64,000 bases of DNA from Clostridia bacterium (GCA_017536445.1 JAFXHJ010000018.1:30772-94771), one strand, 5' to 3'. Positions 45,068 to 64,000 are shown, numbered from the stretch's first letter. Made by a program: numbers and translations. Notes: generated by a model not told the origin, from the sequence alone.

Positions 45068-45079
45068 TAAGGAGGCGTT

Positions 45080-47196: not shown

Positions 47197-47240
47197 ACAA
47201 CAAAGCTACACTTCATGCTGAAGTGTAGCTTTGTTATTAT
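47197..47240 (+). terminator. Rho-independent terminator closing the polysaccharide operon
   Basis: 15-bp stem CAAAGCTACACTTCA/TGAAGTGTAGCTTTG, followed by a T-rich tail. Confidence 0.85.
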
Positions 47241-47302
47241 TATATAGCCAAAAACTGGAAAAATGTGTCGAAATATGATACAATAAAATAGCGAGGTGTA
47301 CT

Positions 47303-50300
47303 ATGAAAGAAAATATAAGTAATAATTACCTAATGGATAAACCTATTGATAGAATAACAAAAGATGAATTTGATAACAAAAGTATTGTTGATGAAATAGT
47401 TCATAATATAAAATCTAACGAACCACCATATAACATAGCACTAATAGGTAAATGGGGAACAGGAAAAAGCAGCATATTAGAATGTGTGGAAAATGAATTT
47501 AATAAAGATGAATACTTATTTGTAAGAATCAATGCTTGGAAATATGAAAAACAAGAAATAAGAAGAGCGTTTATTTTTGAAATATTGAATGAATTGCCTA
47601 AAATCAGCGGAAAAGTAAATCCAATAGTTGTTGCAATAAAAGAAACTCTAAACAAAGTTTTTAGTGCTAAGATAGAGGAAGATAAAAGCAAAGCAACAAT
47701 TAAAGATATTTCAGCAAAAATATTTAGCAATACTATGGCTTTAATTTTGGGATGTGGCTTGCCATTATGTTTAATTTTCCTTCTTTGTATATTTGGTATT
47801 GATTTTGTGTTAAGCTGTTTTAATATTAAAATAGATAATTATAATGGAATTAGGCTAGAAATGGCAGGTGCTTTTATAGTTACATTAATACCTTTAATAT
47901 ATGATTGTATTATGAAATTTTGCGAATCAAAAAAACCGATTAATATTAATGTTTCAGAACAAGTAAAAGATACTAATTTCTACGAAGAGCAAATGAAAGT
48001 AGCGCTTGCTGAATATGAAAAAAAGAAAAAAGAATTTAAATCTATTATTTGTATTGTAGAAGATATAGATAGATTAAATGCAGATAAAATGGTAGAAGCA
48101 ATAAACGCTTTGAAAAGTTTTATAGGCACAGATAAAATAATATTTATAGTACCTTATGATAATAATATTTTATCCTCTGTATTAGAAAGATGTAAGAACA
48201 GTAAAATATCATCAAATTACGAAATATTAGAAGGTGAAATGATATTAAATAAATTGTTCCAATATAAAATATATATGCCAGAATTGATACAAGAAGACAT
48301 GTACGAATTTGCCAAAAAACAAGTTAGTGAAAGTACAATACCTAATTTGTTTAAAGATAAAAGTATATTATATGACAATATACTTCCGGTGTTAATGTAT
48401 GAAGAAACTAAGACGCCAAGAGATGTTAAACAACTGATAAATTCGTATATAGCAAAATATAATATTGCGTTTTCAAGAGGAATAGTGAATTGTGAAGCAA
48501 AAGAACAATTACAATTGATGGCAGTACTAACTGTTTTAGAAAATGATTTCAACGAATTCTATTCTGAAATAGTAAATTATCCAAATATAATTGAATATTT
48601 TCTAGAGAACAAGATGACATTTGAAGAAAAAGAAAATGATGAAGAAAGTCAAATAAATGAAGAAGGCCTATCTCTAATATATAAAAGGTTAAAAAAAGAT
48701 ATATACCGAGGTTCAAAGTTTAAAAAATTAGAAGCATTTTTAAAGTATACAAAAAGCATAAATAAAGATAATATAGAACGTTTAGTTTATCTGAATTATA
48801 GCAAAATAGATAAAATAGGCGGAGGAATAGCATCTCGTGAATTTAGGTCAGCATTAATAAATTGCAACTTAAATAAAGCAAGAGAGTATCTAAGTGGAAT
48901 TAGTAGGGTTAGCGAACTTATCTCTAGGGAACTTTCATATAGAGATTTCTATAAGAAAAAGAACATAGTAATAACAATGGTGGGACTATATAAAGAATTA
49001 TCTAATATAGATGTTAATGAACGTAAAAATATTAGTATGGAAATAGAGAAAAACCTTGTATTATTAGATGATCAAGATATATATGAATTAAAAATGATAG
49101 ATATAATTAAAATAATTGAAGAATTTAATTATACTAATTGCAATAATTTATATGCCGCGTTAAGGTTAAAATTATACAATTGGAAACCAACATATCTTTA
49201 TGTTGAAGATGAAACGGGAGAAGTTATAGAAGATGAAAAAGCGCTTCTAGAGGAGGAGTTAACAGAATTAATCAGAATATATTCCAATGTTGATAATGAT
49301 ATACAAAGAGAAATTAAAAAGATAGTAGAAAGCATAGGTAACTATAACCAAACAGAAGAAGATGTTCAAGAGAGCGAAACAGTATATAAATTTAGTGATT
49401 TTTTCAATTGCGTTTTACCTACACTTGGTGTAGAAGAATACAATATATTAGGAGAAGACTTTTTGAAAAAAGCTCTTATGCTTGTAATAAAAAATATCAT
49501 AAATATATGTGATTTGCAAAAAATAAAGGAAGTATATATTGCCAATAATGATATAGATAGTTTTATAAAATTGTTATTTGCAACTATAGAAGGCGAAGAT
49601 GAAAGAATGATTTTAAATGTATTAGAAAATATACAAAGTGATATTCCTTTATTAAATAGAGAAACGAAGAAAATAATATTTTCAACAATAGAAGCTTATT
49701 CGGAAAGTATTAGTCAGTTGGATCGTGATGAATATAAAGTACTAGATAATGTTCTTTCTTTAATATGTGTAGACATAATAAAAGATGATGAAGACAATTC
49801 TATAGATGCTGTCTTAAAATCAGTAGAAGATAATATATATTTAACATTAACAATCATAAGTTTGGCAAACAATAACATGTTAGGAAAAATCGAACAAACA
49901 ATTAGACAAATAAACGATAAGCTGGTTAATGAAGATGAAGAATATGATGAAATGTTTGGCAAGATATGTAAGAAATATACCAACGAAGAAAAGTCGGATT
50001 TATTAGAAAAACTATTAAGTAAAATTAATGGATATCAAGGCAATATAAGCATTATTAGAACTCGTTTTGATGTTATTAAAACTACTAGTAATGTAAGCGA
50101 TATATGCACGAAATTCGTAGGGGAAATAGCAAATTACGTTATTACTAAATATAATAACATTGTAGATTTAGAAAGACGTAAAGATATGTTACAGTTTTGC
50201 GTAGAAAACTGTAAGTATTTAACAGAAGAAGAGGTAATAAAATTCTTTGATTTTTTAAATAACACAGTGATTTTAAATTATCCAGAAATAACAATTGAAG

Positions 50301-51058
50301 CAAGTAAATATAAAGAGTTTATAAATTTACCTGATGAAAATTGGAAAGAAGCTTTAAGCAAATATATATTAGCAAATAATATTGAAATAATGGACATTAT
50401 AAGTATACTAGAAAAGAAACTGGAAATAGTAAATGGTAACGTTGAAATAAAAAAACACACTGTAAGCAAAATTATCACTGAATTTACAGACGATGAAAGA
50501 ATACTTAATTTATTAATTAGACTAAAAATTGCTAGTATTGCTCAAATTATAGAATTATACAATGTAATGGATAATTACATTCAAAATAATAGTGTGTTAA
50601 GAACATTAAAAGATATAGTAGAACCAATGGAAGACAAAGTGAGTTTGGTAAGAGAAATAATTAATAAAGCCGAAGACTTAGAAATGTTAATAATTATTAC
50701 TAACGAATACAGTACTTCAGGACTTGAAACGGGCTTAATAGATTTATTAACTGAATATGAAAATAGCGACAGAGTAGTTAATGATGATTATAGAATGAGA
50801 TTGCTAGAAGTTGTAGCTAAAATCAACAAATCAAAAAAACAAATAGTAAACAAATTCTATATGTTGCTGATAGATGTACTAAACAGATTGCATGAAACAG
50901 ATGCAGAGAAGGTTGTTGAATTAATGAATATTGGTAAGAATAAATTAAATAAAAATTCAAGAAATACAGCGCTCAACAAATTAGAAGTGACAATATCAAA
51001 AATAGAAAACGAAGAAGAAAAAGAAAGAATCATTTCAAAGTTAAAAGATTTCACATAA
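47303..51058 (+). CDS. KAP-family P-loop NTPase with about 850-aa helical C-terminal extension
   Basis: Walker A GKWGTGKSS and the RINAWKYE block. TM helices are inserted between Walker A and Walker B (ALILGCGLPLCLIFLLCIFGIDFVL, AGAFIVTLIPLIYDCI). Walker B is ICIVEDIDRL. Monocistronic, lying between two strong terminators. Confidence 0.8.
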   Translation: MKENISNNYLMDKPIDRITKDEFDNKSIVDEIVHNIKSNEPPYNIALIGKWGTGKSSILECVENEFNKDEYLFVRINAWKYEKQEIRRAFIFEILNELPKISGKVNPIVVAIKETLNKVFSAKIEEDKSKATIKDISAKIFSNTMALILGCGLPLCLIFLLCIFGIDFVLSCFNIKIDNYNGIRLEMAGAFIVTLIPLIYDCIMKFCESKKPININVSEQVKDTNFYEEQMKVALAEYEKKKKEFKSIICIVEDIDRLNADKMVEAINALKSFIGTDKIIFIVPYDNNILSSVLERCKNSKISSNYEILEGEMILNKLFQYKIYMPELIQEDMYEFAKKQVSESTIPNLFKDKSILYDNILPVLMYEETKTPRDVKQLINSYIAKYNIAFSRGIVNCEAKEQLQLMAVLTVLENDFNEFYSEIVNYPNIIEYFLENKMTFEEKENDEESQINEEGLSLIYKRLKKDIYRGSKFKKLEAFLKYTKSINKDNIERLVYLNYSKIDKIGGGIASREFRSALINCNLNKAREYLSGISRVSELISRELSYRDFYKKKNIVITMVGLYKELSNIDVNERKNISMEIEKNLVLLDDQDIYELKMIDIIKIIEEFNYTNCNNLYAALRLKLYNWKPTYLYVEDETGEVIEDEKALLEEELTELIRIYSNVDNDIQREIKKIVESIGNYNQTEEDVQESETVYKFSDFFNCVLPTLGVEEYNILGEDFLKKALMLVIKNIINICDLQKIKEVYIANNDIDSFIKLLFATIEGEDERMILNVLENIQSDIPLLNRETKKIIFSTIEAYSESISQLDRDEYKVLDNVLSLICVDIIKDDEDNSIDAVLKSVEDNIYLTLTIISLANNNMLGKIEQTIRQINDKLVNEDEEYDEMFGKICKKYTNEEKSDLLEKLLSKINGYQGNISIIRTRFDVIKTTSNVSDICTKFVGEIANYVITKYNNIVDLERRKDMLQFCVENCKYLTEEEVIKFFDFLNNTVILNYPEITIEASKYKEFINLPDENWKEALSKYILANNIEIMDIISILEKKLEIVNGNVEIKKHTVSKIITEFTDDERILNLLIRLKIASIAQIIELYNVMDNYIQNNSVLRTLKDIVEPMEDKVSLVREIINKAEDLEMLIIITNEYSTSGLETGLIDLLTEYENSDRVVNDDYRMRLLEVVAKINKSKKQIVNKFYMLLIDVLNRLHETDAEKVVELMNIGKNKLNKNSRNTALNKLEVTISKIENEEEKERIISKLKDFT

Positions 51059-51069
51059 TAACAAACACT

Positions 51070-51106
51070 CAAAAATAATACAGCTAGTTTGGCTGTATTA
51101 TTTTTA
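51070..51106 (+). terminator. Rho-independent terminator after the KAP NTPase gene
   Basis: 13-bp stem AAAATAATACAGC/GCTGTATTATTTT. Confidence 0.8.
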
Positions 51107-51207
51107 TGCATAAATTTAGTGTTTACATAACAAAAGTTGCTTTTTTCGTTGAAAAAAAAGCTTGTCTATGGTAAAATAATATATGCGTGATGAAAAGAGG
51201 AGAAAAA

Positions 51208-51915
51208 ATGGAAGAAATCAATATTAAAGATTTATTTGAATTTTTTATATCAAAAATAAGAATAATAACATTAGTAGTATTAATTGTAGTTTTAATTGGT
51301 GCAGTATATTCATTATGCTTTCAAGAGCCAATGTTTGAATCTACAACTAATATGGTTCTAACAGGAACAGCTAGTGCTAGCGGTAGCACAACTAATATAG
51401 AAGGTGGAGAAGCTATTACTCAAAATGATATTAACTTAAATTCTAAGTTAGTTGCTACATATAGAGAGATTATTAAATCTAAAACTGTATTAAAAGATGT
51501 TATAAACACACTAGATCTTGAATACACAACTAAAGAATTATATAGAAATATAACTGTTTCAACAGTAGCAGATACTGAAATGATTAGTATTACAGTTAAG
51601 TCTTTAAATGCAGAAGAAGCAGCTAAAGTAACAAATAAGCTAGCTGAAATATTTAGTGAAAATATTAAAGAAATATATAACATAGAAAACATTTCTATAA
51701 TAGATAAAGCTGAAATAGAATCTGTACCTACAAACATAAATGTAGTTAAACAATTAATAATATATTTCCTAATTGGTTTTGTAGTTGCATGTGGTATAGT
51801 ATTTGTACTATTCTATTTTGATACTACATTAAAAGATGCTTCACAAATAGAAAAAATGGGATTTGTAGTTTTAACTTCAATTCCCGAAAGAATAGAAGAA
51901 GGAGGTAAGAAATAA
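51208..51915 (+). CDS. Wzz/CpsC-type chain-length determinant, tyrosine-kinase transmembrane modulator
   Basis: N- and C-terminal TM helices flank a periplasmic-type domain. It immediately precedes the CpsD-like kinase. The ATG at 51208 follows AAGAGGAG. Confidence 0.8.
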   Translation: MEEINIKDLFEFFISKIRIITLVVLIVVLIGAVYSLCFQEPMFESTTNMVLTGTASASGSTTNIEGGEAITQNDINLNSKLVATYREIIKSKTVLKDVINTLDLEYTTKELYRNITVSTVADTEMISITVKSLNAEEAAKVTNKLAEIFSENIKEIYNIENISIIDKAEIESVPTNINVVKQLIIYFLIGFVVACGIVFVLFYFDTTLKDASQIEKMGFVVLTSIPERIEEGGKK

Positions 51916-52577
51916 TGGCTAATATAATTTCACATAAGAATCCTAAATCTATAATTTCAGAAAGTATAAAAATACTACGTACAAATCTTCAATTCTCAAA
52001 TGTAGATGGTAGTCTAAAAACAATTATGATTACATCTTCAATATCTGGAGAAGGTAAGAGCTTTACTACAGCAAACCTTGCAGTATCATTTGCGGCACTT
52101 GGAATGAAAATTTTAGTTGTAGACTGTGATATGAGACGTGGAACACAACATAAACAATTTGGTGTAACAAATGCTAATGGTTTATCTGATCTTTTAATAG
52201 ATCCAGTTATGAACTTAGATAAATATGTAAAAAAAGTAGATATAGACAATGTTTCGTTAATAACTGCTGGTACAGTACCACCAAACCCAAGTGAATTATT
52301 AAGTTCAAATAGTTTTGCTAAATTCTTAGAATTAGTAAAAGCAAAATATGATATGGTTATTTTAGACGTTCCACCAGTAACTGTAGTTCCAGATGCATCT
52401 ATTGTTGCTACAAAAGTAGATAAGACAATAATTGTTTCTAGAATAAAAGTTACACCAATGGAAGAATTAGAAAAAACTAAAAAGATGTTAGAGAACGTAA
52501 AAGCTAACATTGCTGGTGTAGTAGTAAATGGTGTTAAAACATCTGCTAAAAAATACTATGGTAACTATTACAAATAA
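51915..52577 (+). CDS. CpsD/CapB-family BY-kinase (protein-tyrosine kinase)
   Basis: Walker A SSISGEGKS, Walker A' VVDCDMRRG, Walker B ILDVPP. C-terminal Tyr cluster KKYYGNYYK. Confidence 0.88.
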   Translation: MANIISHKNPKSIISESIKILRTNLQFSNVDGSLKTIMITSSISGEGKSFTTANLAVSFAALGMKILVVDCDMRRGTQHKQFGVTNANGLSDLLIDPVMNLDKYVKKVDIDNVSLITAGTVPPNPSELLSSNSFAKFLELVKAKYDMVILDVPPVTVVPDASIVATKVDKTIIVSRIKVTPMEELEKTKKMLENVKANIAGVVVNGVKTSAKKYYGNYYK

Positions 52578-52585
52578 GGAGTAAT

Positions 52586-53308
52586 ATGATAGATATACAT
52601 ACACATATATTACATGCGGTAGATGATGGTAGCGATGCTTTAGAAGAAAGTGTCGCTATATTACAATCTGCTGAAAGTGTGGGAGTAACAGATATAATTT
52701 GTACGCCACATTATTTAAGCCAAGAAGAATTTAATAAAAAACTTGTATTAAAAAGGTTTAATGAATTAAAAGAAGAAATAAAAAAGAAAAATATAAATAT
52801 TAATTTGCATTTAGGAACTGAAATTGCAGTATATGGAAGAGTAGATAAATTATTAGAGGATAAAGATTTAACTTCTTTAGCAGGATCTAAATATCTTTTA
52901 ATAGAATTTCCGATGGCAATAGATGTGGATTATGTTTTAGATACTGTGTATGAAATTAAAGTGCGTGGATTTATTCCAGTAATTGCACATCCAGAAAGAT
53001 GTGAATGCTTTAAAAGAGATTATAGCCTAATAACAAAAGCAATTAAAGAAGGTGCTTTAATACAATGTAACATAGACAGTTTATTAGGTGGAAATGGTAC
53101 TACGGCAAAAAGAATAATTAGAAGTTTACTAAAAGAACGCAAAGTAGATTTTCTTGTTACAGATATACATAGTATAACAAATAACAGATATGAACGTTTA
53201 CCTAAAGCTATGAAGAAAGTAGAAAAACTTGTAGGTAAAGAATATATGAATGAATTGTTTGAACACAATGCAAGAAAGATATTATTAAATGAAAATATAG
53301 AGGAGTAG
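52586..53308 (+). CDS. CpsB/YwqE-type PHP-family protein-tyrosine phosphatase
   Basis: MIDIHTHILHAVDDGS start, TPHY, AHPER, TDIH. Confidence 0.88.
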   Translation: MIDIHTHILHAVDDGSDALEESVAILQSAESVGVTDIICTPHYLSQEEFNKKLVLKRFNELKEEIKKKNININLHLGTEIAVYGRVDKLLEDKDLTSLAGSKYLLIEFPMAIDVDYVLDTVYEIKVRGFIPVIAHPERCECFKRDYSLITKAIKEGALIQCNIDSLLGGNGTTAKRIIRSLLKERKVDFLVTDIHSITNNRYERLPKAMKKVEKLVGKEYMNELFEHNARKILLNENIEE

Positions 53309-53311
53309 TTT

Positions 53312-54646
53312 ATGACAAAGAAAGTTTTCTCATTACTTTTTATAATATTTACAGCTAGTACAATTTTTTGTACTAGCGTTTTTGCTGCAACAAAGAACGA
53401 TATAATTTCTTTTGTAAATGCGCAATCAGTATGTGGAGATACGGGATTATTTAATTCATATAAAAAGACATTTACTAGACTTCTTAAACAAAAGGATTTA
53501 AGTGCGTCAGAATTAAATACAATATATTCGTATTTACAAAATGCAGTAGGCATTTTAAATAGTAAAGGTGTTTGTAAAATAGCAGATCTAAGTAAGTTAA
53601 CATCTGCAGAAAAGAAAAGTGTATATAACAGTCTTATGGCAGGAGCTAATATAATTACAAAAGCACCGCCTTTAGAAGATAAAGAGGAGGAAGTAGTAAT
53701 TCCAGAAACACCGGATAATAAAGAACCGGAAGGCAATACAGGTAATACTGGTAATACAGGAAATACTACTAAACCTACTACAAAACCAAATAGTAATAAA
53801 AATAATACTAACAAGAACAATACTTCAAAAGAAAATGAAGGAACTAAAATTACAATAAATACTCAAGATGGTACAATGGATATTTATGAAAATGGCGTAT
53901 TAGTAGATAAACTAGAAATGTCTAATGCTAAAATGACATATACTGGAGCTAATATGACATATGTACTAATATCTGTTACATGTATAGCTGTTTTTGGAGT
54001 ATCACTTTTAATATTTGTTAAGTTGTATGACATACATTCATCAAAAACTAGAATGGTAAAAAATATATTTGTGTCAGGAATGATTTGTTCTACTACAATA
54101 CTTTTAGTAGTATTGGTATTTGGAAGTAAAATAGAAAGCGCATTAGCAACAATAAATATGCTAAGTATATCTAACAGTAAAGAAGAAATACAAGTAGAAC
54201 TAAACGATAAACACGAGATAGTTAAATATCCATCATATGGAGCAGATTATGGTACTTTAAGTATACCTGAAGTAAATGTAGAAAATAAAATATATTTTGG
54301 GGATATGACTACAATATTATCTTTAGGAATTGGACATACAACATCAAGTTCAATGCCAACTGAAGGAGATACTGTAATATACAGTGGTCATAACAGAGAA
54401 AATATGTTAGCAGGACTTAAAGATATTAAAAAAGGAAATAAAATAACAGTAGATACAACATATGCTAAATGTACATATACAGTTGTTAAAACTGAAATTT
54501 TAAATGATACAGAAACAGGCAAACTAGCAAAACAAAATAACAAAGAAACTTTAATACTATACACATGCTATCCATTTGGTAGTTATGTATATACAAATAA
54601 AAGATTTGTTGTATATAGTGTGTTAGATAATGTAGAGTGGAAGTAG
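53312..54646 (+). CDS. Sortase-domain protein fused to an N-terminal secreted domain, low-complexity linker and two TM helices
   Basis: The C-terminal roughly 150 aa carry sortase catalytic signatures: SGH (His), LILYTCYP (TLxTC-type Cys) and NKRFVVY (Arg). N-terminal signal peptide. NTGNTGNTGNT linker. Confidence 0.7.
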   Translation: MTKKVFSLLFIIFTASTIFCTSVFAATKNDIISFVNAQSVCGDTGLFNSYKKTFTRLLKQKDLSASELNTIYSYLQNAVGILNSKGVCKIADLSKLTSAEKKSVYNSLMAGANIITKAPPLEDKEEEVVIPETPDNKEPEGNTGNTGNTGNTTKPTTKPNSNKNNTNKNNTSKENEGTKITINTQDGTMDIYENGVLVDKLEMSNAKMTYTGANMTYVLISVTCIAVFGVSLLIFVKLYDIHSSKTRMVKNIFVSGMICSTTILLVVLVFGSKIESALATINMLSISNSKEEIQVELNDKHEIVKYPSYGADYGTLSIPEVNVENKIYFGDMTTILSLGIGHTTSSSMPTEGDTVIYSGHNRENMLAGLKDIKKGNKITVDTTYAKCTYTVVKTEILNDTETGKLAKQNNKETLILYTCYPFGSYVYTNKRFVVYSVLDNVEWK

Positions 54647-54654
54647 GTGGCTAT

Positions 54655-55419
54655 ATGAAACAAATAATAGGAATATTTTTAATGATAGTACAAACAGTGC
54701 TAGGAATTGTACTTTGTATTGGAATAGCTACTGCTATAAACATGAATTCGGACACTGTATTAAAAGCGGTATACAAGGCAAATTATTTAGAAACAACATC
54801 ATCTGCTGCTAAAGAAACTTTAATGGGATATATGACAGAAGAAAAAGCAGATAGTATATTAAATGAAGTAAGTGTTAAATCTGAAATAAAAGAATTAGTT
54901 GGAGCTATGGACAACAATACTGTAGAAAAGAAAGCAGAAGCTATGAAAGCGGAAATGAATACTAAAGTTGTAATGTCTTTAGAAGATGATGTAGATGAAA
55001 ATTTAAAAGAGCAATTTGCAACTATTGTAAGTGATGCATATATGAAAACAATTTTCCCTATTTCAGAAATGAGCTTAGTAAGTAAATATTGTGCGCTATA
55101 TAAAAACAAAATAATTTTAGCAGTAGTTGTATTAGCGCTAATATATGGAATAATATTTGTAGCATTATCTAAAGGTAGAAAAACATATAAATGGCAAATA
55201 ATATCTATGTATAATACAATAGTATTTACATTAATAATATTTGCACTTCTTGGAACATTTACAAATATAACAATAGGAAACGAAAGAACAAGCGAAGTAA
55301 TAACAAACATTATAAAAAATGTAAGAGGAGATGTTTTAATTGCAGTAATAACAACATTATTGTTCGCCATAACATCTAACTATTTTGCATATTTTAGAAA
55401 AAAGAAAAGTAAACATTAA
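54655..55419 (+). CDS. Membrane protein of unknown function
   Basis: An N-terminal TM segment, a helical ectodomain of about 120 aa, then three C-terminal TM helices. The ATG at 54655 follows GTAGGTGG. Confidence 0.6.
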   Translation: MKQIIGIFLMIVQTVLGIVLCIGIATAINMNSDTVLKAVYKANYLETTSSAAKETLMGYMTEEKADSILNEVSVKSEIKELVGAMDNNTVEKKAEAMKAEMNTKVVMSLEDDVDENLKEQFATIVSDAYMKTIFPISEMSLVSKYCALYKNKIILAVVVLALIYGIIFVALSKGRKTYKWQIISMYNTIVFTLIIFALLGTFTNITIGNERTSEVITNIIKNVRGDVLIAVITTLLFAITSNYFAYFRKKKSKH

Positions 55420-55437
55420 TTGAAATAAAATATTAAA

Positions 55438-55477
55438 TAAAAGCACAGTAGCGGAGAATTAGCTACTGTGCTTTTCT
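55438..55477 (+). terminator. Rho-independent terminator
   Basis: 12-bp stem AAGCACAGTAGC/GCTACTGTGCTT, followed by TTTC. Confidence 0.8.
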
Positions 55478-55609
55478 AATATATTACAACAATATTACGC
55501 CAACATTACAATTAGATTAAAGTTGATAGAGTTAATAAAAAAATGTCGAAATTTTATAGAAAATGACAAAAATTTAGTATATTCTATTGAAGACAGGAGT
55601 GTTAATATT

Positions 55610-56218
55610 ATGATTAATAAAGTTAAAAAAATCTTTGGTATTATAGTTCTAGTAATTTTATTAGTTGTACTTTTTGTTAACAGTGTTATATTAATAGACT
55701 CGGTTATATTTCCGGATAGCGTTCCATCGTTTTTTGGATGGAAGCCATTTATAGTTTTATCAGGATCTATGGAAACTGAAATATATTCTGGTGATCTAGC
55801 AATAGTAAAAGAAGTAGATGCAAGCAAAATAAAAGAAAATGATGTTATTGCATTTAAATCTGGTAATATTGTTGTTACACATAGAGTAATTGAAATTGTA
55901 AATGAAGGCGGAGTAACTAAGTATAAAACAAAGGGAGATAACAATAACATAGAAGATGAGGGTTATGTGTTAGCGGAACAAATTGAAGGATTATATCAAT
56001 TCAAAGTGAGTAGAATGGGTAATCTAGCTATGTTTACACAAACGCCAATTGGAATGATTGTTTGCTTATCTATACCGTTAGGTTTATTAGTTATAATTCA
56101 AATGACTGATTCTAAAGATAATAAAAAGTATCAAAAAGAAAGCGCTAATAAAGAAAAAGAATTACAAGAAGAGATTGAAAAATTAAGAAAGCAAAATGAA
56201 GAACTAAAGAAAAAATAG
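55610..56218 (+). CDS. sipW: SipW-type (ER/archaeal-type) signal peptidase I, copy 1, with C-terminal TM and charged coiled-coil tail
   Basis: LSGSMETEIYSGDLAIV, VTHRV, TKGDNNN. C-terminal TM segment GMIVCLSIPLGLLVII. The ATG at 55610 follows AGGAG. Confidence 0.85.
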   Translation: MINKVKKIFGIIVLVILLVVLFVNSVILIDSVIFPDSVPSFFGWKPFIVLSGSMETEIYSGDLAIVKEVDASKIKENDVIAFKSGNIVVTHRVIEIVNEGGVTKYKTKGDNNNIEDEGYVLAEQIEGLYQFKVSRMGNLAMFTQTPIGMIVCLSIPLGLLVIIQMTDSKDNKKYQKESANKEKELQEEIEKLRKQNEELKKK

Positions 56219-56311
56219 TTAAATGGATTAGATTAATTATAAAAAGTGGGAGGTGAAAAAATGAGAAAAAGGTTTAACACCAGTACAAATAAAAAGGAGG
56301 AAAAAACAAAA

Positions 56312-58189
56312 ATGAAAAAAAATAAATTAAACTTACTAAGAGTTATTAACGTCGTTTTATTAATTACGATGGTAGCGACAATCTTAGTATCTGGCACTTA
56401 TGCTAAATTTACAAGCAGAGCGTCAGGAACTAGCGCAGTAGTTGTTGCAAATTGGTCATTTATGGTTGGTGAACAAGATATTACAGTTTTAGGCTCAGAA
56501 GATGAGATAGAATTTGATTTGTTCACAACAGCAACTATAAAAGATAGCGATGGTAGTGACGAAGAAGATGTAGCAGAAGGATTAATAGCACCAGGAACAT
56601 CTGGAAAATTTGAATTCGTTCTTTCTAATACATCTGATGTTGTTACGGAGTATAAAATACAATTAAGCGCTGAAAATGAAAATAATATTCCAATAGAATT
56701 TTCTTATACAGGTGAAGAAGGTTCTTGGACAAAAGATTTAAACAATCTGATTGAAACTAATATATTAAATATTAATGGAACAAAAAATGTAGTAGTTCAA
56801 TGGAGATGGCCATTTGATGGTGAAGCTGATACTGCATTAGGAACAGCAACAGAGACTCCAACAATAACAGTAACAGCAAGCATAACTGCTACACAAACAA
56901 ATAGTATAACTTCATCTACACAATATGTAGAAAAACAACTTTTTACGGATATTGAAAACGTGACAACAACAACGGCTATTAGCAATATGACTGCCGTTAC
57001 CCTTAGTGCGGGACCATATGTATATCAAGATGTAAATGTGTTTTCAGGTAAAACAATTACAAAGATAGGTATACCGGTTAAATCCGTAAGTGATTTAAAT
57101 ACGCCTCAAACATTTACATTATATGTAGTTGATAAAGAAGCGTTAGCTAATAAAAGTGATTTAAAGCCAGCGACAATAGCGCAAACACATATGTTGACAC
57201 TACCTAAAGAACAACTAGGAGATACTACAACTGTTAATAAAATGGTATATGTAAATGTAAATATTACTCTTGCAGAGAATCAAACTTTGGCTTTCTGTTC
57301 TGAGAATGATACCGTAATATGGGGATTTCTTCGTTACAATTCGTCAGCGGTTATTGGAAATCAATACAAATTTATTGCAGGAAGTCTAACATCACCAGCT
57401 ACTAATAATGGAAACATAATTTTTGACATTTATGTAAGAGAAGAAGTAGAAGTTATAGACCCTGACGACGAAACAGAATCACCTTTAAAAACAGCTTTAA
57501 AAGGCAAAAATCTATCAATATTAGGTGATAGTATAAGTACATATGATGGTTATTCTAATAATTCAAGTACCACAAATACTACAATAGGAAGTAATAAAGT
57601 TTATTATACAAGTTCTTTAGGAAGTCCTATTACCGATGTTAATATGACTTGGTGGATGCAAGCTGCAAACGAAACTGGAATGAATGTGTTAGTAAATAAT
57701 TCATATTCTGGAGATACTATAGCAAACAGAGGAAAAACAAGAGCAATGCAATTGCATGATGATACAGGTGATAATTCGGGTACTAATCCGGATATTGTTG
57801 CAGTATATATAGGTATTAATGATGTTAAAAATACTAGCAATCTTAGCACTACAGTATTTGGAGACAACTATACTACGATGGTAACAAATATTAAAACAAC
57901 ATATCCAGATGCGGATATATTTGTATTTACACTTCCACCTTATACGGCTCCAAATGCAACAGTTCCATCAATGGGAGCTGATGAGATTGAAGTATATAAT
58001 CAAGTAATTAGAAATGTTGCAAACGAAAATGGTTGTACTATAGTTGATATTTTCAACGATAGCGGTATTACTGAAGACAACTATCTTTCAGATTATATGT
58101 GGGATACAGGATTACATCCAAACGAAGCAGGTATGGATGCAATAACAGAAACATTTATTTCTGCTTTAAGCAGCAAATATTTAAATTAA
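56312..58189 (+). CDS. TasA/camelysin-like N-terminal module fused to a central beta-rich region and a C-terminal SGNH/GDSL hydrolase domain
   Basis: The SipW-type signal ends VSGTYAKFTS. Module blocks APGTSGKFEFVLSN, VQWRWPF, SITATQ. SGNH blocks LGDSIS, NNSYSGDT, IGINDV, DTGLHPN. An alternative upstream ATG lies at 56261. Confidence 0.75.
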   Translation: MKKNKLNLLRVINVVLLITMVATILVSGTYAKFTSRASGTSAVVVANWSFMVGEQDITVLGSEDEIEFDLFTTATIKDSDGSDEEDVAEGLIAPGTSGKFEFVLSNTSDVVTEYKIQLSAENENNIPIEFSYTGEEGSWTKDLNNLIETNILNINGTKNVVVQWRWPFDGEADTALGTATETPTITVTASITATQTNSITSSTQYVEKQLFTDIENVTTTTAISNMTAVTLSAGPYVYQDVNVFSGKTITKIGIPVKSVSDLNTPQTFTLYVVDKEALANKSDLKPATIAQTHMLTLPKEQLGDTTTVNKMVYVNVNITLAENQTLAFCSENDTVIWGFLRYNSSAVIGNQYKFIAGSLTSPATNNGNIIFDIYVREEVEVIDPDDETESPLKTALKGKNLSILGDSISTYDGYSNNSSTTNTTIGSNKVYYTSSLGSPITDVNMTWWMQAANETGMNVLVNNSYSGDTIANRGKTRAMQLHDDTGDNSGTNPDIVAVYIGINDVKNTSNLSTTVFGDNYTTMVTNIKTTYPDADIFVFTLPPYTAPNATVPSMGADEIEVYNQVIRNVANENGCTIVDIFNDSGITEDNYLSDYMWDTGLHPNEAGMDAITETFISALSSKYLN

Positions 58190-58211
58190 TAATGAAAAGG
58201 GGTAAAAAATT

Positions 58212-58814
58212 ATGAAAAAATCAAATAAAATAGTAAAACTTACAGCAGTAGTGTTATTTGTATCAGCAATAACATTAGTGCTAGTAACAGGAACATATGC
58301 TAAATATGCAAGTGAAGCATCAGGCAGCTCTTCAGCTGTAGTTGCTAAATGGGATATCAAAGCAGGTGCAAAAGATAACGAGCAATCAATAACAGCAGAG
58401 AATGCAACAGTTACATTCAATCTATTTGACACAATAAAAAATTCTGATGGTGAAGCTGAAACAGCAGTAGCTGCAAATAAAATAGCTCCAGGAACATCAG
58501 GAAGTTTTGAATTATCAGTAAAAAACGATTCTGAAGTAAATGCAGAATATACTGTAAATTTTGCATTAGTAGATACAACATTACCAGAAGGAACAACTTT
58601 ACCATTAGAATTTAAAGTAAATAGTGGTGAATGGTCAAAAGATTTAACAGGTGCTCAAGCAACAGCATTAGCAAGAGGAACAAGTGGAACAGTAACAGTT
58701 CAATGGAGATGGCCTTATGAAGTAGATGGTGGCGATGCTAATGATACAAAATTAGGATTAGATCCAAAGACTATAAAAGTACAAGCAACTCTTGTAGTAT
58801 CTCAAGTAGACTAA
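58212..58814 (+). CDS. Minimal TasA/camelysin-like secreted protein (200 aa), probable major fibre subunit
   Basis: The signal ends VTGTYAKYAS. Blocks APGTSGSFELSVKN, VQWRWPY, ATLVVSQ. No extra domain is present. Confidence 0.75.
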   Translation: MKKSNKIVKLTAVVLFVSAITLVLVTGTYAKYASEASGSSSAVVAKWDIKAGAKDNEQSITAENATVTFNLFDTIKNSDGEAETAVAANKIAPGTSGSFELSVKNDSEVNAEYTVNFALVDTTLPEGTTLPLEFKVNSGEWSKDLTGAQATALARGTSGTVTVQWRWPYEVDGGDANDTKLGLDPKTIKVQATLVVSQVD

Positions 58815-58822
58815 TAAGAAAT

Positions 58823-58857
58823 TAGACAAAATCTCTTTTAAAAAGGGGTTTTGTCTA
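58823..58857 (+). terminator. Long imperfect hairpin directly after the 200-aa subunit gene (possible partial terminator/attenuator)
   Basis: 58823-58838 pairs with 58842-58857: 16 bp including two G-U pairs, with a 3-nt loop. The downstream T-run is weak. Confidence 0.45.
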
Positions 58858-58898
58858 GGATTTATTTATATTGTATAAGAATTAAAGAGGAGAATATA

Positions 58899-60707
58899 AT
58901 GAAACAAAAAACATTAATTAAATTAATGAGTATAGTTGTTTTAGCAATAATGACTACAACAATATTAGTTTCAGGAACGTATGCTAAATACACGACAGTT
59001 GCGTCTGGTATCAATTCTACTGTTGTTGCAAAATGGTCATTTATGGTTGGCGAACAAGATATTACTGTATTAGGTTCAGAAGATGAGCTGGTTTTTGACT
59101 TGTTTAATACAGCGTCTATTAAAGACAGCGATGGTGGTGTAGAAAATGACGTTGAAGCAGGTGTAATAGCACCAGGAACGACTGGTAGTTTTGAATTTGT
59201 ACTAAAAAACACATCAGATGTAACTGCTAAATATGATATAAAATTAACATCAAATAATGAAAATATTCCTATTGAGTATTCTATAGATGGTGCAACATGG
59301 ACAAGTAATTTAGCAGAACTAGTAATGTCTGAAGAAATCATTATAGGTGGAACAAAGAATGTAATGGTTCAATGGAAATGGCCTTTTAATGATGAGACAG
59401 ATGCGTCATTAAGCCAACAAACACTTGAAGTAACAGCTAAGATAACAGCTACACAAGTAGATTATCTATATTTAGATCAATTAGATAAAAATTATGAATT
59501 AACATATTATAATGATGCGGCAGCGGTAGTAGCTGCAATTAATAATACAACTTATGAAGGTGGAACATCAGCTAAAGAAGAAGCTGAGTTAGCTTTATAT
59601 ACAGATGATAATAATGTTCAAAATTTAGTTGTAGTGAAAAACACAGCTCTAAATACAACTTTAACTCCGACAGAAGATTTAGTTGTTGACTTAGCTGGAA
59701 AAACATTAACTTTTAATACAGACAACGCAATAAATGCTGACGGTGTTGATGTTTCAATAAAAGCTGAAGCTGCTGGAAGCAAATTAACTTTGGCTAATAG
59801 TGGAACTACAACAACACTAGTTAGTGTAACAAACGGAACATTAACTATTAGTGGTGGAGAATATGAAACTAAATCTAACGGAGTAGGTACAGACGCTAGT
59901 CCGAATCCATCTATTTTAGTAGGCCAAGGCGGCAGCTTAACAGCAAGTGATATTAAATTAACTGCTACTGATGCAACTAGTGGAACTTTAGCGGGAATAC
60001 TTGTAGAAGAAGGTGGTACAGCTACAGTTACGAATTCACAAATAGAATTAACATCACTTAATGGCTTAAAAAGCGATGGCGTTAGAAATTATGGAACAAT
60101 GACTTTGGTTAATACAAGTGTTCAAGCATATGCAAATTATACTGCGAATGCAGCAAAAACCGATTATGCTACTAATACAAGAGGAATAAATAATGAGGGG
60201 ACAATGACACTAAAGAACTGCTATGTGTATGGTACGCATTCTGGTGTTAGAAGTGCAGGACCTTTATATGTAGATGGCGGAACATACGAAGGGTATGGTC
60301 ATGGTGGAATATATTTCTCACATACAGGTCAAGTGTCATATGTAAAAAATGCAAGTTTAAGACAAGCTGAAATGAAAGTAGGATATGATGATGGAATAGC
60401 TGGAACAAATAGAGCTGGTTGCTATATTGGTGGCGGATCAAATATCGTAGTTTATATGGATAATTGTGATTTATATGGTCAATATTATCCTATGGTTATT
60501 CGTAGTAGTGGTAGTGAAGGTAATAACTCATTATATATAAGTAATTCTAGAATAAACGAAGACAGAACACGTTATCCAAGAAATGATGGAAGTACTAATA
60601 GATTATATATTGGTTCTGGAAATAATTTCGATTTAGAAGATACATACAAAGAAGAATATACTGTAGAAACTGGTGAAGATTATAGCACACAGTTCCCAGA
60701 ATATTAA
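58899..60707 (+). CDS. TasA/camelysin-like N-terminal module fused to a roughly 400-aa right-handed parallel beta-helix-like region
   Basis: The signal ends VSGTYAKYTT. Blocks APGTTGSFEFVLKN, VQWKWPF, KITATQ. The C-terminal half has repeated G-T-[ML]-T-[LI]-x-N-[ST]-x-[VI] turns. Confidence 0.7.
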   Translation: MKQKTLIKLMSIVVLAIMTTTILVSGTYAKYTTVASGINSTVVAKWSFMVGEQDITVLGSEDELVFDLFNTASIKDSDGGVENDVEAGVIAPGTTGSFEFVLKNTSDVTAKYDIKLTSNNENIPIEYSIDGATWTSNLAELVMSEEIIIGGTKNVMVQWKWPFNDETDASLSQQTLEVTAKITATQVDYLYLDQLDKNYELTYYNDAAAVVAAINNTTYEGGTSAKEEAELALYTDDNNVQNLVVVKNTALNTTLTPTEDLVVDLAGKTLTFNTDNAINADGVDVSIKAEAAGSKLTLANSGTTTTLVSVTNGTLTISGGEYETKSNGVGTDASPNPSILVGQGGSLTASDIKLTATDATSGTLAGILVEEGGTATVTNSQIELTSLNGLKSDGVRNYGTMTLVNTSVQAYANYTANAAKTDYATNTRGINNEGTMTLKNCYVYGTHSGVRSAGPLYVDGGTYEGYGHGGIYFSHTGQVSYVKNASLRQAEMKVGYDDGIAGTNRAGCYIGGGSNIVVYMDNCDLYGQYYPMVIRSSGSEGNNSLYISNSRINEDRTRYPRNDGSTNRLYIGSGNNFDLEDTYKEEYTVETGEDYSTQFPEY

Positions 60708-60732
60708 TAACATAATTTAGTAAATTAATTTT

Positions 60733-60770
60733 AGGTATAAAGCTCTATTTTAAGTAGAGCTTTGCCTAAA
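60733..60770 (+). terminator. Terminator-like hairpin
   Basis: AAAGCTCTA/TAGAGCTTT stem, extended by AGGT/GCCT. The T-run is weak. Confidence 0.5.
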
Positions 60771-60826
60771 AATATATTGACAAAAGATTATATGATTTTT
60801 TGTGAGTGTATATAAAGGGGGCTATT

Positions 60827-61441
60827 ATGGAAAATAATCAAGAAACGCTAGAAACATATAAAAGAATTCAAAAACGAGATAGAATACAAAAAATAATTTT
60901 GATAATAATAATTATTATACTATTATTATTATGTATCGTAGTATATAGAGTTGGGAAAATAGGATATAGTGAACATATAGTTCCTACACCTGGCATGGAA
61001 TCTGTGTCTTTAATAAAAGTAACAGCAGGAGATATGGAAATAAAGAAAGATTCGCAATTAGATATATTTAAAAATGCTAAGTTCGATTATAAAAATATAA
61101 TTGCACCAAAATCTAAAGGTGAGTATACATTCTGTGTAAAAAACACTACTGATAAAAATATCTCTTATAATATAAAATTTGAAGAGGAAATGCAGTATCA
61201 TATAAATATGAAATATAAATTAAAAATAGATAATGTTTATATTAGAGGTTCAGAGAATGAATATGTTGATATTGAAGAATTAAGTGTAGAAGATATAGTC
61301 GGAACAAAAGAATCTATAAATATGTATACATTAGAGTGGTATTGGGAAGATGATGATAAAAATGATACTATAGTTGGAAGACAAAACATAGACCAAGAAT
61401 ATACTTTACATTTAGAAATATATGCAAATGAATTAAATTAA
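60827..61441 (+). CDS. Membrane-anchored divergent TasA/camelysin-like protein (no GTYAK-type cleavage motif)
   Basis: About 25 cytoplasmic residues, then TM segment IILIIIIIILLLLCIVVY. Ectodomain blocks APKSKGEYTFCVKN, LEWYWEDDD, LEIYANE. Confidence 0.6.
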   Translation: MENNQETLETYKRIQKRDRIQKIILIIIIIILLLLCIVVYRVGKIGYSEHIVPTPGMESVSLIKVTAGDMEIKKDSQLDIFKNAKFDYKNIIAPKSKGEYTFCVKNTTDKNISYNIKFEEEMQYHINMKYKLKIDNVYIRGSENEYVDIEELSVEDIVGTKESINMYTLEWYWEDDDKNDTIVGRQNIDQEYTLHLEIYANELN

Positions 61442-61460
61442 TAAAGGTGGATTTTTATAA

Positions 61461-62069
61461 ATGCAATATACAAATGAAGCTATAAAAAAAAGAAAAGCAA
61501 GAAAATATAGAATTAAAAAGTTCTTAGCTATTGTAGCATATTGTGTTCTTATTCCATTATTACTATACAATACAAATTTAATAATTCAGGTAATTATTAA
61601 TCCAAATAAGACTCCAAGCTTTTTAGGGATAAAAACATATGTAATTGTTTCTGGAAGTATGAGTCCAGAATTAAATGTTGGAGATATTGTTGTTGTTAAA
61701 GAAGTGGATACAAACACGTTACAAAGCAAAGACATTATTTCTTATAGAGAAGGACAAACAGTTATAACTCATAGAATAGCAAGTATTGAGGCTAAAGGAA
61801 ATCAAAAAATATTTTATACAAAAGGAGACAATAATAACTCTATAGATAATACAGAAGTAATAGCGGATAATATAGAAGGCAAAGTAGTTTCATCAATTCC
61901 GTTTTTAGGGAAAGCTGTATTATTATTGCAAGGCAAATTAACAATAATAATGGTTGTGCTTATATTCTATGCGTATTTTATAAGAAGTGAAAAAGTTAGA
62001 AATAAAAAAGAAGCGAGAAGATTAAAGAGATTAGAGTATGAAGGGAGAAGTATAGAGGATGAACAATAA
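61461..62069 (+). CDS. sipW: SipW-type (ER/archaeal-type) signal peptidase I, copy 2
   Basis: VSGSMSPELNVGDIVVV, ITHRI, TKGDNNN. C-terminal TM segment plus a basic tail. Confidence 0.85.
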   Translation: MQYTNEAIKKRKARKYRIKKFLAIVAYCVLIPLLLYNTNLIIQVIINPNKTPSFLGIKTYVIVSGSMSPELNVGDIVVVKEVDTNTLQSKDIISYREGQTVITHRIASIEAKGNQKIFYTKGDNNNSIDNTEVIADNIEGKVVSSIPFLGKAVLLLQGKLTIIMVVLIFYAYFIRSEKVRNKKEARRLKRLEYEGRSIEDEQ

Positions 62070-62571
62070 ATATCAAAGGTTTTTACCAAAATTAATATTT
62101 ATGTGCTTAATAACTACAAGTATAGTTACAACACTTTCATTTTCTAAATATCAAACTACTGTAACAGGAAAAAGTACAAATGCTAGAGTTTCAGTACCAA
62201 GGTTAAGCGTAGCTCTTGCTGAAAAGCAAGAAGATTCACTTGTGATTGATTGTAATACTAATATAAAAAGTGTAAATTACTCAATAATTGTAAGCAATAA
62301 AGAAAAAGAAAATATATCAGAAGTTTCTTTGGAATATGATATAATAATAACATTACCGGTTGAAGTAGCTAGCGGATTAACCGTTAAAGTAGATGGGAAG
62401 GAAACAACTAGAAATAAGAATAAGTATACAATTAGTAAGGCGGGAAATTTTAAACCATCTACATCTCGTAGCCAAACACATACTTTAACATTTGAAGCAA
62501 ATCCAGATGTTATTAGAAACTGTGAATTGAATAATATAAAAGTAACAGTGTATGCAGAGCAAATAGATTAA
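62059..62571 (+). CDS. Small secreted beta-rich protein with SipW-type-like signal (LSFSKYQTT), distant TasA-like candidate
   Basis: Overlaps the sipW copy 2 stop by 11 nt. Has an N-terminal h-region and ends in the ...VTVYAEQ strand. Confidence 0.55.
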   Translation: MNNKYQRFLPKLIFMCLITTSIVTTLSFSKYQTTVTGKSTNARVSVPRLSVALAEKQEDSLVIDCNTNIKSVNYSIIVSNKEKENISEVSLEYDIIITLPVEVASGLTVKVDGKETTRNKNKYTISKAGNFKPSTSRSQTHTLTFEANPDVIRNCELNNIKVTVYAEQID

Positions 62572-62585
62572 CAGGAGGTAGAAAA

Positions 62586-63692
62586 TTGAATATAAAAGAA
62601 TTTTTTTATAATAAAAATAATCTTATAACAATTATACTTGTCTGTATAATAGCCTGTATGTTAACTGTTTGTATTACTACGTCGTATGGTAAATATGTAT
62701 TAGAAAAAGAAGTTACATTAAATTTGCAAATTGTTGAAAGCAATGAATGGAATAAAAGAACTTTAGTAGATGGCGAAACGTTAAATGGTATATTATTATC
62801 AACAGGAGCAACAAGGGTTGTTTTTGGAAATGAACAGGATTATATTTCTCAATTAGAAAATATTGAGTCACTAGCTGTAGCAATAGAAAATACAAGCAAA
62901 GGATTTGCTACTACGGACATTAAACTATATGTAGCACAAAATAGTGATGAGGTAAAAACAGCATATATACTTTCTAATTATCAAATCAAGGCAAATGAAA
63001 ATAGTTCTAAAATGTTCTCAAATTATGAAAATTTAACAGAGATAGTATTTTCAAATTTCGAAACATACGAAATGAAAAACGCATCAGATATGTTTAGTAA
63101 TTGCGTGAACTTAAAGGAATTAGATTTATATAAATTTGATACATCTAATGTCTTAGATATATCAAATATGTTTTCAGGAAATAATAATTTGGAAAAAGTA
63201 TACGTAAGTGAATTATGGAATTTAAGTAATATATCACAACCACAAGACAATGTGTTCTTGAATTGTACAAAGTTAACCGGAGAAAATAATACGATATATA
63301 GTGAAGAACATGTAAGCAGCGAATATGCAAGAATAGATAGTGCCGAATTGCCAGGGTATTTTACATTTAAATCGATAAATACATCAGAAGAACTTGTTTT
63401 AGACGAAATAGAAACAGGTATGGACTTAATACAATCAACTGAGGATAATTTAAATGAAGGAAATAATCTTTTAGAAACAGAAAAAAATGAAACAGATGAA
63501 GTTGAATATAATATTGGAATTGGTTCAAATACCGAAGTAGAAGAACAACCTAAAGAGGACAAGCAAGAGGAAAATGATGATACACAAGAATTTGTAGAAC
63601 AGACTGAAAAGCAAGAAATAATTAATGAAACTGTTGAAGAAACAGAAAAATTAATAAATGAAGAGAATACGGTAAATATATATTCAGAATAA
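62586..63692 (+). CDS. DUF285/BspA-type leucine-rich-repeat surface protein with SipW-type-like signal (TSYGKYV) and acidic Glu-rich tail
   Basis: Repeats MFSNYENLTEIVFSNF, MFSNCVNLKELDLYKFDTSNVLDISNMFSG. TTG start after AGGAGG. Confidence 0.65.
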   Translation: MNIKEFFYNKNNLITIILVCIIACMLTVCITTSYGKYVLEKEVTLNLQIVESNEWNKRTLVDGETLNGILLSTGATRVVFGNEQDYISQLENIESLAVAIENTSKGFATTDIKLYVAQNSDEVKTAYILSNYQIKANENSSKMFSNYENLTEIVFSNFETYEMKNASDMFSNCVNLKELDLYKFDTSNVLDISNMFSGNNNLEKVYVSELWNLSNISQPQDNVFLNCTKLTGENNTIYSEEHVSSEYARIDSAELPGYFTFKSINTSEELVLDEIETGMDLIQSTEDNLNEGNNLLETEKNETDEVEYNIGIGSNTEVEEQPKEDKQEENDDTQEFVEQTEKQEIINETVEETEKLINEENTVNIYSE

Positions 63693-63718
63693 GTTGCCCG
63701 AAAGTATTTTGTTATAGA

Positions 63719-63760
63719 TAAAAGAAGTCAAATTAGAGAATTTGACTTCTTTTATCTTTT
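63719..63760. terminator. Bidirectional terminator between convergent genes
   Basis: 14-bp stem AAAGAAGTCAAATT/AATTTGACTTCTTT with an AGAG loop and a T-run downstream. Confidence 0.75.
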
Positions 63761-64000
63761 ATTACAAGCGGAGCAACTTCAAAAAGTATATTAAAACATT
63801 TGAATTTATCTGTTTCGCCATTTTCTAAACAATCTAAATATATATCTAATTCATCTAGGTTTTTACAAGCAGATATTACAGCGGGATGTAAATTTGTATT
63901 GAAAAACAATTCTAAACCTAAGTCAAAAGCTTGCTTTAAATTACCATGCTCGCGATCTTTTATTAAATTTAATGATTCCTTAAATCTAGAGAAAGGAGCA
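63733..64000 (-). CDS. 3' end of an unidentified minus-strand gene (5' part outside window)
   Basis: 89 stop-free codons run from the window edge to a TAA at 63735-63733 (...NLDELDIYLDCLENGETDKFKCFNILFEVAPLVIKDKRSQIL). It is absent from the ORF track because no Met occurs in the window. Confidence 0.4.
   Translation of the reverse strand, partial: APFSRFKESLNLIKDREHGNLKQAFDLGLELFFNTNLHPAVISACKNLDELDIYLDCLENGETDKFKCFNILFEVAPLVIKDKRSQIL

Follow-up and report, generated by a model that had tools for sequence, protein, structure and literature searches.

We analysed a 64,000-nucleotide (nt) stretch of DNA, referred to here as the window, from the Clostridia bacterium genome GCA_017536445.1 (JAFXHJ010000018.1:30772-94771) and found at positions 55610-63692 an operon that probably encodes a surface fibre built from TasA-like beta-sandwich subunits and dependent on SipW-type signal peptidases. 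The window has a low GC content (around 29%), and the genes of the final 14 kb all read from the + strand. The operon is single and self-contained, consisting of eight closely spaced genes, each of which matches public gene calls on identical contigs, with a hairpin at each border. Two genes encode signal peptidases, SipW-A and SipW-B, and six encode the products labelled P2, P3, P4, P5, P7 and P8. The features of the locus are as follows.

55442-55472, + strand: terminator-like hairpin (11-bp stem, 9-nt loop, T run), 3' of a membrane-protein gene; 5' border of the operon
55483-55512, + strand: promoter-like site, ATTACA-18-TACAAT, 9 of 12 positions matching; a consensus match only
55610-56218, + strand: SipW-A, signal peptidase I (TIGR02228), with AGGAG 5' of the ATG at 55610
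56246-58189, + strand: P2, with a fibre module (about 56312-56902), a middle region and a C-terminal SGNH/GDSL hydrolase (about 57506-58150)
58212-58814, + strand: P3, 200-amino-acid stand-alone subunit; proposed major shaft subunit
58822-58858, + strand: stable hairpin of 17 pairs immediately 3' of the P3 stop codon; proposed to attenuate transcription or stabilise the mRNA
58899-60707, + strand: P4, with a fibre module (58899-59462) and a C-terminal right-handed beta-helix (59463-60707)
60806-61441, + strand: P5, membrane-tethered subunit of the GKIG class with one fibre module
61461-62069, + strand: SipW-B, second signal peptidase I (TIGR02228)
62059-62571, + strand: P7, minor subunit of the same fold; the first 11 nt of the gene coincide with the end of SipW-B
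62586-63692, + strand: P8, variable last-position protein with DUF285/PARCEL repeats
63716-63757, + strand: terminator-like hairpin (19 pairs and a T run); 3' border of the operon

Probable start positions from the public gene calls are 56261 or 56309 for P2 (642 amino acids in the public call), 58899 for P4 and 60827 for P5. The hairpin at 55442-55472 was identified in the sequence itself, as a consensus hairpin scan with a loop limit of 8 nt skipped it because of its 9-nt loop. Promoter-like consensus sites are not enriched in the region (44 observed versus 53.7 expected), and an Rfam scan of positions 50000-64000 detected no regulatory RNA, such as a cyclic di-GMP riboswitch, and returned only chance microRNA matches on the terminator.

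All six products have a signal peptide that ends in [GST]-x-[ASG]-[KR]-[YF]. The original prediction, which was made from the sequence alone, had described three open reading frames (ORFs) with the signal end G-T-Y-A-K-[FY]-x-[ST] and two with degenerate versions of it; the former are present in P2 (SGTYAKFTS), P3 (TGTYAKYAS) and P4 (SGTYAKYTT), and the latter in P7 (SFSKYQTT) and P8 (TSYGKYV). It had also listed short blocks common to four products, which hold in substance, except that P5 reads AP-K-S-K-G instead of APG[TK] and P3 ends in VSQVD instead of [AT]TQ. The N-terminal modules of P2, P3 and P4 are mutually 40–58% identical, and P5 and P7 are around 20% identical to them. A hidden Markov model (HMM) built from 51 P3 homologues matched P2 (E = 6e-56), P4 (E = 6e-57) and the C-terminal part of P5 (E = 3e-10), and a profile of the P7 class was aligned by hhalign with the major-subunit family, to which P3 belongs, with a probability of 99.2% (E = 7e-20, 156 columns). 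Judged by these profile comparisons, P2, P3, P4, P5 and P7 are paralogues of one beta-sandwich module, which has no family assignment in Pfam, NCBIfam or PHROGs. P8 shares the signal motif only and lacks the module.

The sequence family of the window module is large and has no Pfam or NCBIfam model: the P3 profile matched 7,920 cluster representatives with a threshold of E ≤ 1e-3, of which 636 remained at E ≤ 1e-30, and the P3 search itself returned 320 homologues. A scan of one genome per species identified 79 related loci (80 with the window), mostly in metagenome-assembled genomes of Clostridia, Bacilli, ‘Tenericutes’ and Erysipelotrichaceae. Three carriers are cultured: [Clostridium] asparagiforme DSM 15981, Clostridium sp. 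MCC353 and Clostridium sp. chh4-2. At least two SipW genes on the same strand are present in 69 of the 80 loci, and the remaining 11 are all cut by a contig end beside the major gene; every related locus without such a cut encodes a signal peptidase I beside the subunit gene. The gene order is SipW-A, one to three major-type genes (around 200 amino acids), a variable middle gene for a membrane-tethered subunit of the GKIG class (210–1540 amino acids), SipW-B, a small gene and, last, a variable large protein. The small gene follows the last SipW gene in all 69 multi-SipW loci; in 60 of them its product falls within a 140–240-amino-acid size range, with actual lengths of 160–225. This comparison of gene neighbourhoods, which had been suggested as a check, shows that the recurrence of the same gene set in 79 loci of other genomes is not chance. 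The locus had been read as an expanded version of known operons with two peptidases; it is not a one-off expansion but a typical member of a large family, in which two SipW genes are the rule.

That the locus contains two signal peptidase I genes of the endoplasmic reticulum/archaeal type, as originally read, was borne out by the proposed comparison with TIGR02228, the cut-off of which (51.85 bits) is exceeded by both SipW-A (99.2 bits) and SipW-B (93.9 bits). Both enzymes have the SGSM, THR (THRV in SipW-A) and GDNN motifs that contain the catalytic Ser, His and Asp, and SipW-A has a transmembrane segment at both its N and C terminus and a charged C-terminal tail. Neither reaches the 190-bit cut-off of the Bacillus SipW equivalog NF046067 (111.6 and 93.5 bits), and on these scores the window peptidases are relatives of Bacillus SipW, not orthologues.

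The peptidase tree and the motif counts cover the 65 loci with exactly two SipW genes. In a neighbour-joining tree of the 130 enzymes, a single branch separates the 65 first-position from the 65 second-position peptidases, with all 130 placed correctly and with SipW-A and SipW-B of the window in the position-A and position-B clades, respectively. The catalytic Ser, His and Asp are retained in 62, 61 and 63 of the 65 class A enzymes and in 65, 65 and 60 of the 65 class B enzymes. The perfect split rules out a recent duplication of sipW and, together with the retention of catalytic residues, indicates that the duplication is old and that both copies have been maintained as active enzymes, which argues for distinct roles. 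By this phylogeny, SipW-A and SipW-B are ancient, separate orthologous groups. Two loci (L022 and L026) have a third SipW gene and an extra subunit gene 5' of the usual set, showing that the number of peptidases can exceed two.

Across 79 sequences of the P3 family, T28, A30, K31, Y32, S34, A45, W47, W165, W167, D178 and Q198 are invariant or nearly so. Seven of these 11 positions are at the predicted cut site or no more than 17 residues after it, which is where a donor strand is expected. In TasA-like proteins, the most conserved residues are likewise at the protomer interface (PMC10151520). The conserved residues K31, K46, N105, E108 and D178 are also present in the P3 family. SGNH-fused subunits (P2, L002:2406-4415 and L003:3863-5842) have Asn within the putative donor strand where 66 of the 79 members have Lys46 (VA-K-W), a substitution that could reflect different bonding or chain-terminating behaviour.

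Stand-alone major-type genes are followed by a stable hairpin in 62 of the 69 cases, with a mean folding free energy of −21.2 kcal/mol compared with −10.3 kcal/mol for an in-gene control. Such a hairpin fits a subunit that is needed in excess, and we propose that the one at 58822-58858 raises the ratio of major to minor subunits.

Two subunits carry additional domains. The C-terminal domain of P2 is an SGNH/GDSL hydrolase (PF13472, E = 3.2e-23), and domains of this kind are found in 5 of 7 long family representatives, as well as in the P2 orthologues of two other loci (L002 and L003). For the C-terminal 414 residues of P4, sequence searches, including those against Pfam and PHROGs, found nothing, and the domain was identified by structure prediction only: AlphaFold2 (AF2) modelled a right-handed beta-helix with a mean predicted local distance difference test score (pLDDT) of 95.6 and a predicted template modelling score of 0.94. 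Foldseek matched the model to the fucoidan lyase FdlA, the mannuronan epimerase AlgE4, phage tailspike depolymerases, AlgG and the Vibrio matrix lyase RbmB; as modelled, the domain is a beta-helix of the polysaccharide-lyase type.

In other organisms, homologues of the P4 beta-helix are fused to N-terminal modules of the window family, to N-terminal modules that pass the PF12389 gathering score (six proteins) and to the N-terminal methylation motif of type IV pilins (three proteins confirmed in a Pfam scan, and others that carry precomputed PF07963 annotations). That three kinds of filament subunit bear this cargo is the best indirect sign that the window module, too, belongs to a filament, and it supports the display of cargo on such a filament. 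The idea of a fibre that displays catalytic or adhesive modules, put forward in the original prediction, is compatible with these fusions and with the recurrence of SGNH domains. The beta-helix is mobile cargo, also found fused to SGNH, collagen-like, LysM, Big_2 and phage BppU_N domains; the partners PF07963 and PF12389 were seen in P0189, P0238 and P0249 and in P0188, P0216, P0219, P0223, P0225 and P0288, respectively.

P5 has a charged N terminus, a poly-Ile/Leu helix that is its single N-terminal hydrophobic segment, the motif VGKIGYSE and then one module. The GKIG class is defined across loci by the same arrangement: charged N terminus, poly-Ile/Leu helix, G[KR]IG and module. A Tyr at the would-be −1 position of P5 (VVY-R-VGKIG) makes cleavage unlikely, so the protein should stay anchored. 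GKIG proteins of Bacilli and ‘Tenericutes’ (L019:2450-4918, L029:2097-6191 and L056:10953-15101) are 800–1500 amino acids in length. Large GKIG proteins have a module at both ends with Ig-like repeats between them, and in 22 of 36 the GKIG motif is preceded by a lipobox-like LITSC, which suggests lipid anchoring in place of a transmembrane helix.

P7, with the class motif [TS][YFL][SA][KR][YF], is by profile alignment a conserved minor paralogue of the major-subunit fold. The composition first read from the sequence is therefore right for one minimal subunit (P3), two fusions (P2 and P4) and one membrane-anchored member (P5), and wrong for P7, which is not a divergent cargo protein given its 99.2% match. 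P8 consists of the TSYGKY signal, a short N-terminal strand-like segment, DUF285/PARCEL repeats (PF03382, E = 5.3e-10; TIGR02167, E = 8.2e-07, slightly under its cut-off) and an acidic tail. A last-position gene is present in 58 of 60 loci and encodes 159–2470 amino acids; the signal motif is found in 51 of the 58, and none of the class matches the module HMM over its full length. By analogy with Bacillus subtilis TapA, we propose that P8 is a strand donor, cap or adhesin. In B. subtilis, TasA receives an N-terminal strand from TapA, which is itself no part of the shaft (PMC10151520).

Structural comparison is more suggestive of a link between P3 and TasA than the sequence is. The AF2 model of P3 has a pLDDT of 84.5, and its top Foldseek match is the TasA fibre (8aur_A; E = 5.7e-4, probability 1.0, TM-score 0.35–0.40), followed by PapG, CfaB, archaeal AbpA and FimG, which are donor-strand filament subunits. 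The mature N terminus of TasA, AFND, was confirmed against the sequence of PDB 8aur. The reported residue-for-residue match between the window signal ends and the GTWAAFND region of TasA can be seen in a relaxed alignment, which pairs VsGTyAKYTS with GGTWAAFND and APGT.G.f.f.l.N.SEV with LKPGD...f.L.N.GSL; this alignment is not significant.

On the basis of these data we propose the following mechanism. After Sec export, the peptidases would cut behind the small residue that precedes K-[YF], at [ASG]|K-[YF], and the freed conserved N terminus (KY.S...VAKW) would act as the donor strand that completes the fold of a neighbouring subunit, as in TasA. P3 would form the shaft, made in excess by means of the hairpin 3' of its gene, and P2 and P4 would join it through their shared module, hanging an SGNH esterase and a lyase/epimerase-like beta-helix off the fibre. 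P5 would retain its transmembrane helix and tether the fibre base, and P7 would be an adaptor. P8, with a signal and an N-terminal strand and no acceptor module, would cap or nucleate the groove end in the manner of TapA and carry adhesive repeats. Substrates may be divided between the peptidases, with SipW-A most likely processing the shaft subunits and SipW-B processing P7 and P8, which would be translationally coupled to it.

We are highly confident that the operon encodes a SipW-dependent, multi-subunit surface system. A donor-strand fibre is quite likely, and our overall explanation of the locus, a SipW-dependent fibre of TasA-like subunits, is only a little less so. The individual role assignments (an anchor role for P5, the shaft for P3, an adaptor role for P7 and that of a cap or adhesin for P8) are tentative and somewhat less probable than their alternatives taken together. 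A more far-reaching reading is possible but rather doubtful: the system would be a hitherto unrecognised class of Gram-positive surface filament, a heteropolymeric donor-strand pilus with anchor, shaft, adaptor and tip, with two anciently diverged peptidases that share out the substrates as its only dedicated machinery and with polysaccharide-active enzymes on its shaft subunits, an ‘enzyme-displaying pilus’ widespread in uncultured Firmicutes.

Several results weigh against a TasA-like fibre. The original prediction likened the products to TasA/camelysin and named profile searches without significant matches as a refutation, and these searches were indeed negative: PF12389 gave no match at E ≤ 1 for the six products and none at E ≤ 10 for 51 homologues, and the models of SipW-cognate signals (TIGR04088-04090) gave none at E ≤ 1 for the six products in an NCBIfam scan, a negative limited by the unconfirmed presence of these models in the library and by the HMMER speed filters, to which short models can be lost. 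Alignment by hhalign of a 79-member window-family alignment with a 38-member PF12389 alignment yielded a probability of 10.9% (E = 0.0028) over 15 columns of the last strand only (v.v.atQvd with l.F.FEATQ), and neither this PF12389 alignment nor a single TasA sequence provided a significant link to TasA. In favour of a link, clostridial PF12389 modules, which are 97.7% related to Bacillus TasA, matched the window family with a probability of 70.7% (E = 3.8e-5), in the signal region only. In sequence searches of solved structures, P3 alone found nothing, and a match to AbpX obtained with one profile (A2; E = 0.085) was lost with a broader profile (A4) and is not relied on; the A2 profile otherwise returned only spurious WD-repeat designer proteins. 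The Foldseek TM-scores are low, partly because the P3 model includes the signal helix. The enzymatic activities of P2 and P4 are predictions, and a beta-helix such as that of P4 can also be purely structural or adhesive. Finally, the cut sites, subunit roles, fibre polarity and division of substrates between the peptidases are predictions from motifs and gene order. As the sequence comparisons with PF12389 and TasA are negative, the relationship to TasA rests on the fold, the signal motif and the linkage to SipW, and the window module, which is not a detectable member of PF12389, plausibly represents a distant branch of the TasA superfamily as defined by structure.

The same results bear on the main alternative reading, in which the system secretes and retains proteins that do not polymerise: the module would be a surface- or polysaccharide-binding carrier domain, and P3, P5 and P7 would be stand-alone binding proteins. 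The insignificant sequence link to TasA and the many Ig-like and PapD-like non-filament domains among the Foldseek matches of P3 speak for such a carrier. The top structural matches, however, are donor-strand filament subunits, and conservation is strongest just after the predicted cleavage site and not on a binding face. The hairpin after the 200-amino-acid gene fits a subunit needed in excess, the beta-helix cargo is elsewhere mounted on type IV pilins and PF12389 modules, and simple exoproteins would hardly account for two dedicated peptidases; we consider this reading unlikely. It is still less probable that P7 assists SipW-B as an accessory subunit, crossing the membrane once and exposing a beta-sandwich ectodomain, in analogy to SPC3, which partners SEC11 in the eukaryotic signal peptidase complex; the two proteins would then make up a two-subunit peptidase. 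No feature of the loci varies less than the pairing of SipW-B and P7 (gaps of −49 to +33 nt), the two genes overlap in the window, and for AbpX and Tafi loci it has been proposed that signal peptidase I has accessory subunits (bioRxiv 10.64898/2026.01.04.697558). Yet P7 is homologous to the major subunit over its full length and has the same type of cleavage motif, which suggests a substrate, and SipW-A is equally conserved without such a partner.

The genes upstream of the operon raise the further question of whether the fibre is a sortase-assembled pilus or a part of the capsule machinery. A sortase-domain protein is encoded at 53312-54646 (PF04203, E = 1.2e-20), Wzz, CpsD and CpsB genes are also upstream, and a sortase adjoins the bsa operon of Clostridium perfringens (PMC11580942). 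None of the six operon products has an LPXTG-type sorting signal or C-terminal anchor, however, and nothing beside the 79 related loci corresponds to the sortase gene, the membrane-protein gene (54637-55419) or the Wzx/Wzy capsule genes (36399-53308). With a terminator hairpin standing between these neighbours and the operon, the adjacency of the capsule genes looks incidental; both linkages were rejected, and a sortase- or capsule-based explanation is extremely improbable. The esterase- and lyase-like domains predicted on the preferred SipW-dependent fibre may nevertheless be functionally linked to the cell’s own polysaccharide.

Other features of the window were noted. The sortase is class D-like (below subfamily cut-offs) and lies behind a secreted N-terminal domain, a low-complexity (TGN)n stretch and transmembrane segments. 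An unusually placed gene within the Wzx/Wzy capsule locus (47303-51058), between a flippase-like gene (45080-46627) and Wzz (51187-51915), encodes a 1251-amino-acid KAP-family P-loop NTPase (PF07693, E = 1.7e-27). The product of 33091-34986 has a C-terminal type I dockerin (PF00404, E = 8.5e-13), which hints at a cellulosome-type organism. The product of the next ORF (35000-36217) is a surface protein that combines Ig-like repeats with a C-terminal transmembrane segment and a Lys-rich tail and has no LPXTG motif; its repeats match the central stalk of large GKIG proteins, and it was rejected as a fibre module as it clustered only through these shared repeats.

Fibres of the TasA/BsaA type with a dedicated SipW and several paralogues per operon are already known (PMC11580942; bioRxiv 10.64898/2026.01.04.697558). 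The window operon shares with B. subtilis tapA-sipW-tasA a dedicated SipW-type peptidase, a signal with G-T-aromatic-A just before the cut, a last strand ending in ...ATQ, a beta-sandwich subunit (with the TasA fibre as the best structural match) and, if P8 corresponds to TapA, a partner that has an N-terminal strand and is not part of the shaft. It differs in having no detectable PF12389 membership, two peptidases instead of one, a predicted mature N terminus of KY.S...VAKW instead of AFND, four or more substrate classes, one of them membrane-tethered, and enzyme-like fusions. The C. perfringens sipW-bsaA-bsaB-bsaC operon is likewise clostridial, with several TasA-like paralogues and large non-TasA cargo after sipW (PMC7395162, PMC11580942) and a sortase gene nearby, whereas it has a single SipW. 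BsaA locks its subunits by an Asn-Glu-Lys isopeptide bond, and no GKIG anchor, second peptidase or enzyme fusions have been described for that system. Members of the wide BsaA/TasA family occur in multi-paralogue operons with signal peptidases, and heteropolymers are possible (PMC11580942).

Archaeal filaments of the TasA superfamily (AbpA, AbpX, Tafi and threads) also have a TIGR02228-type peptidase beside the subunit gene and accessory membrane-anchor and tip proteins, and AbpA is among the structural matches of P3. They polymerise by donor-strand complementation, which for the window system is a proposal. They belong to different sequence families and use one peptidase, sometimes with a DUF5305 accessory protein, whereas the hosts of the window family are bacterial, mainly uncultured Firmicutes represented by metagenome-assembled genomes. 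The proposed logic of an excess shaft subunit, adaptor, tip adhesin and donor-strand exchange is that of the Gram-negative chaperone–usher pili (Fim and Pap), with PapG, FimG and CfaB among the structural matches. In contrast to these pili, the window system has no chaperone, usher or outer membrane, the signal peptidases are its only dedicated machinery, and a strand-only protein would occupy the groove end.

Literature searches returned no description of operons with two SipW genes. Within the literature searched, which did not extend to the members of the published set of 2,172 BsaA proteins, the window sequence family, its obligatory and ancient SipW pair, the GKIG anchor class and the recurrent enzyme-bearing subunits have not been described. 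The SipW-dependent TasA-like fibres known from Bacillus, C. perfringens and archaea rely on a single peptidase and one or two subunits; the window family has a fixed six-part architecture, and its two peptidase paralogues have stayed separate across Clostridia and Bacilli. This raises the question of whether signal peptidases provide specificity for, or help to assemble, the different subunit classes of one filament. The fusions suggest a natural route to mounting esterase- and lyase-like enzymes on a fibre, with a bearing on biofilm remodelling, glycan foraging and engineered display, and the three cultured carriers make the family accessible to experiment.

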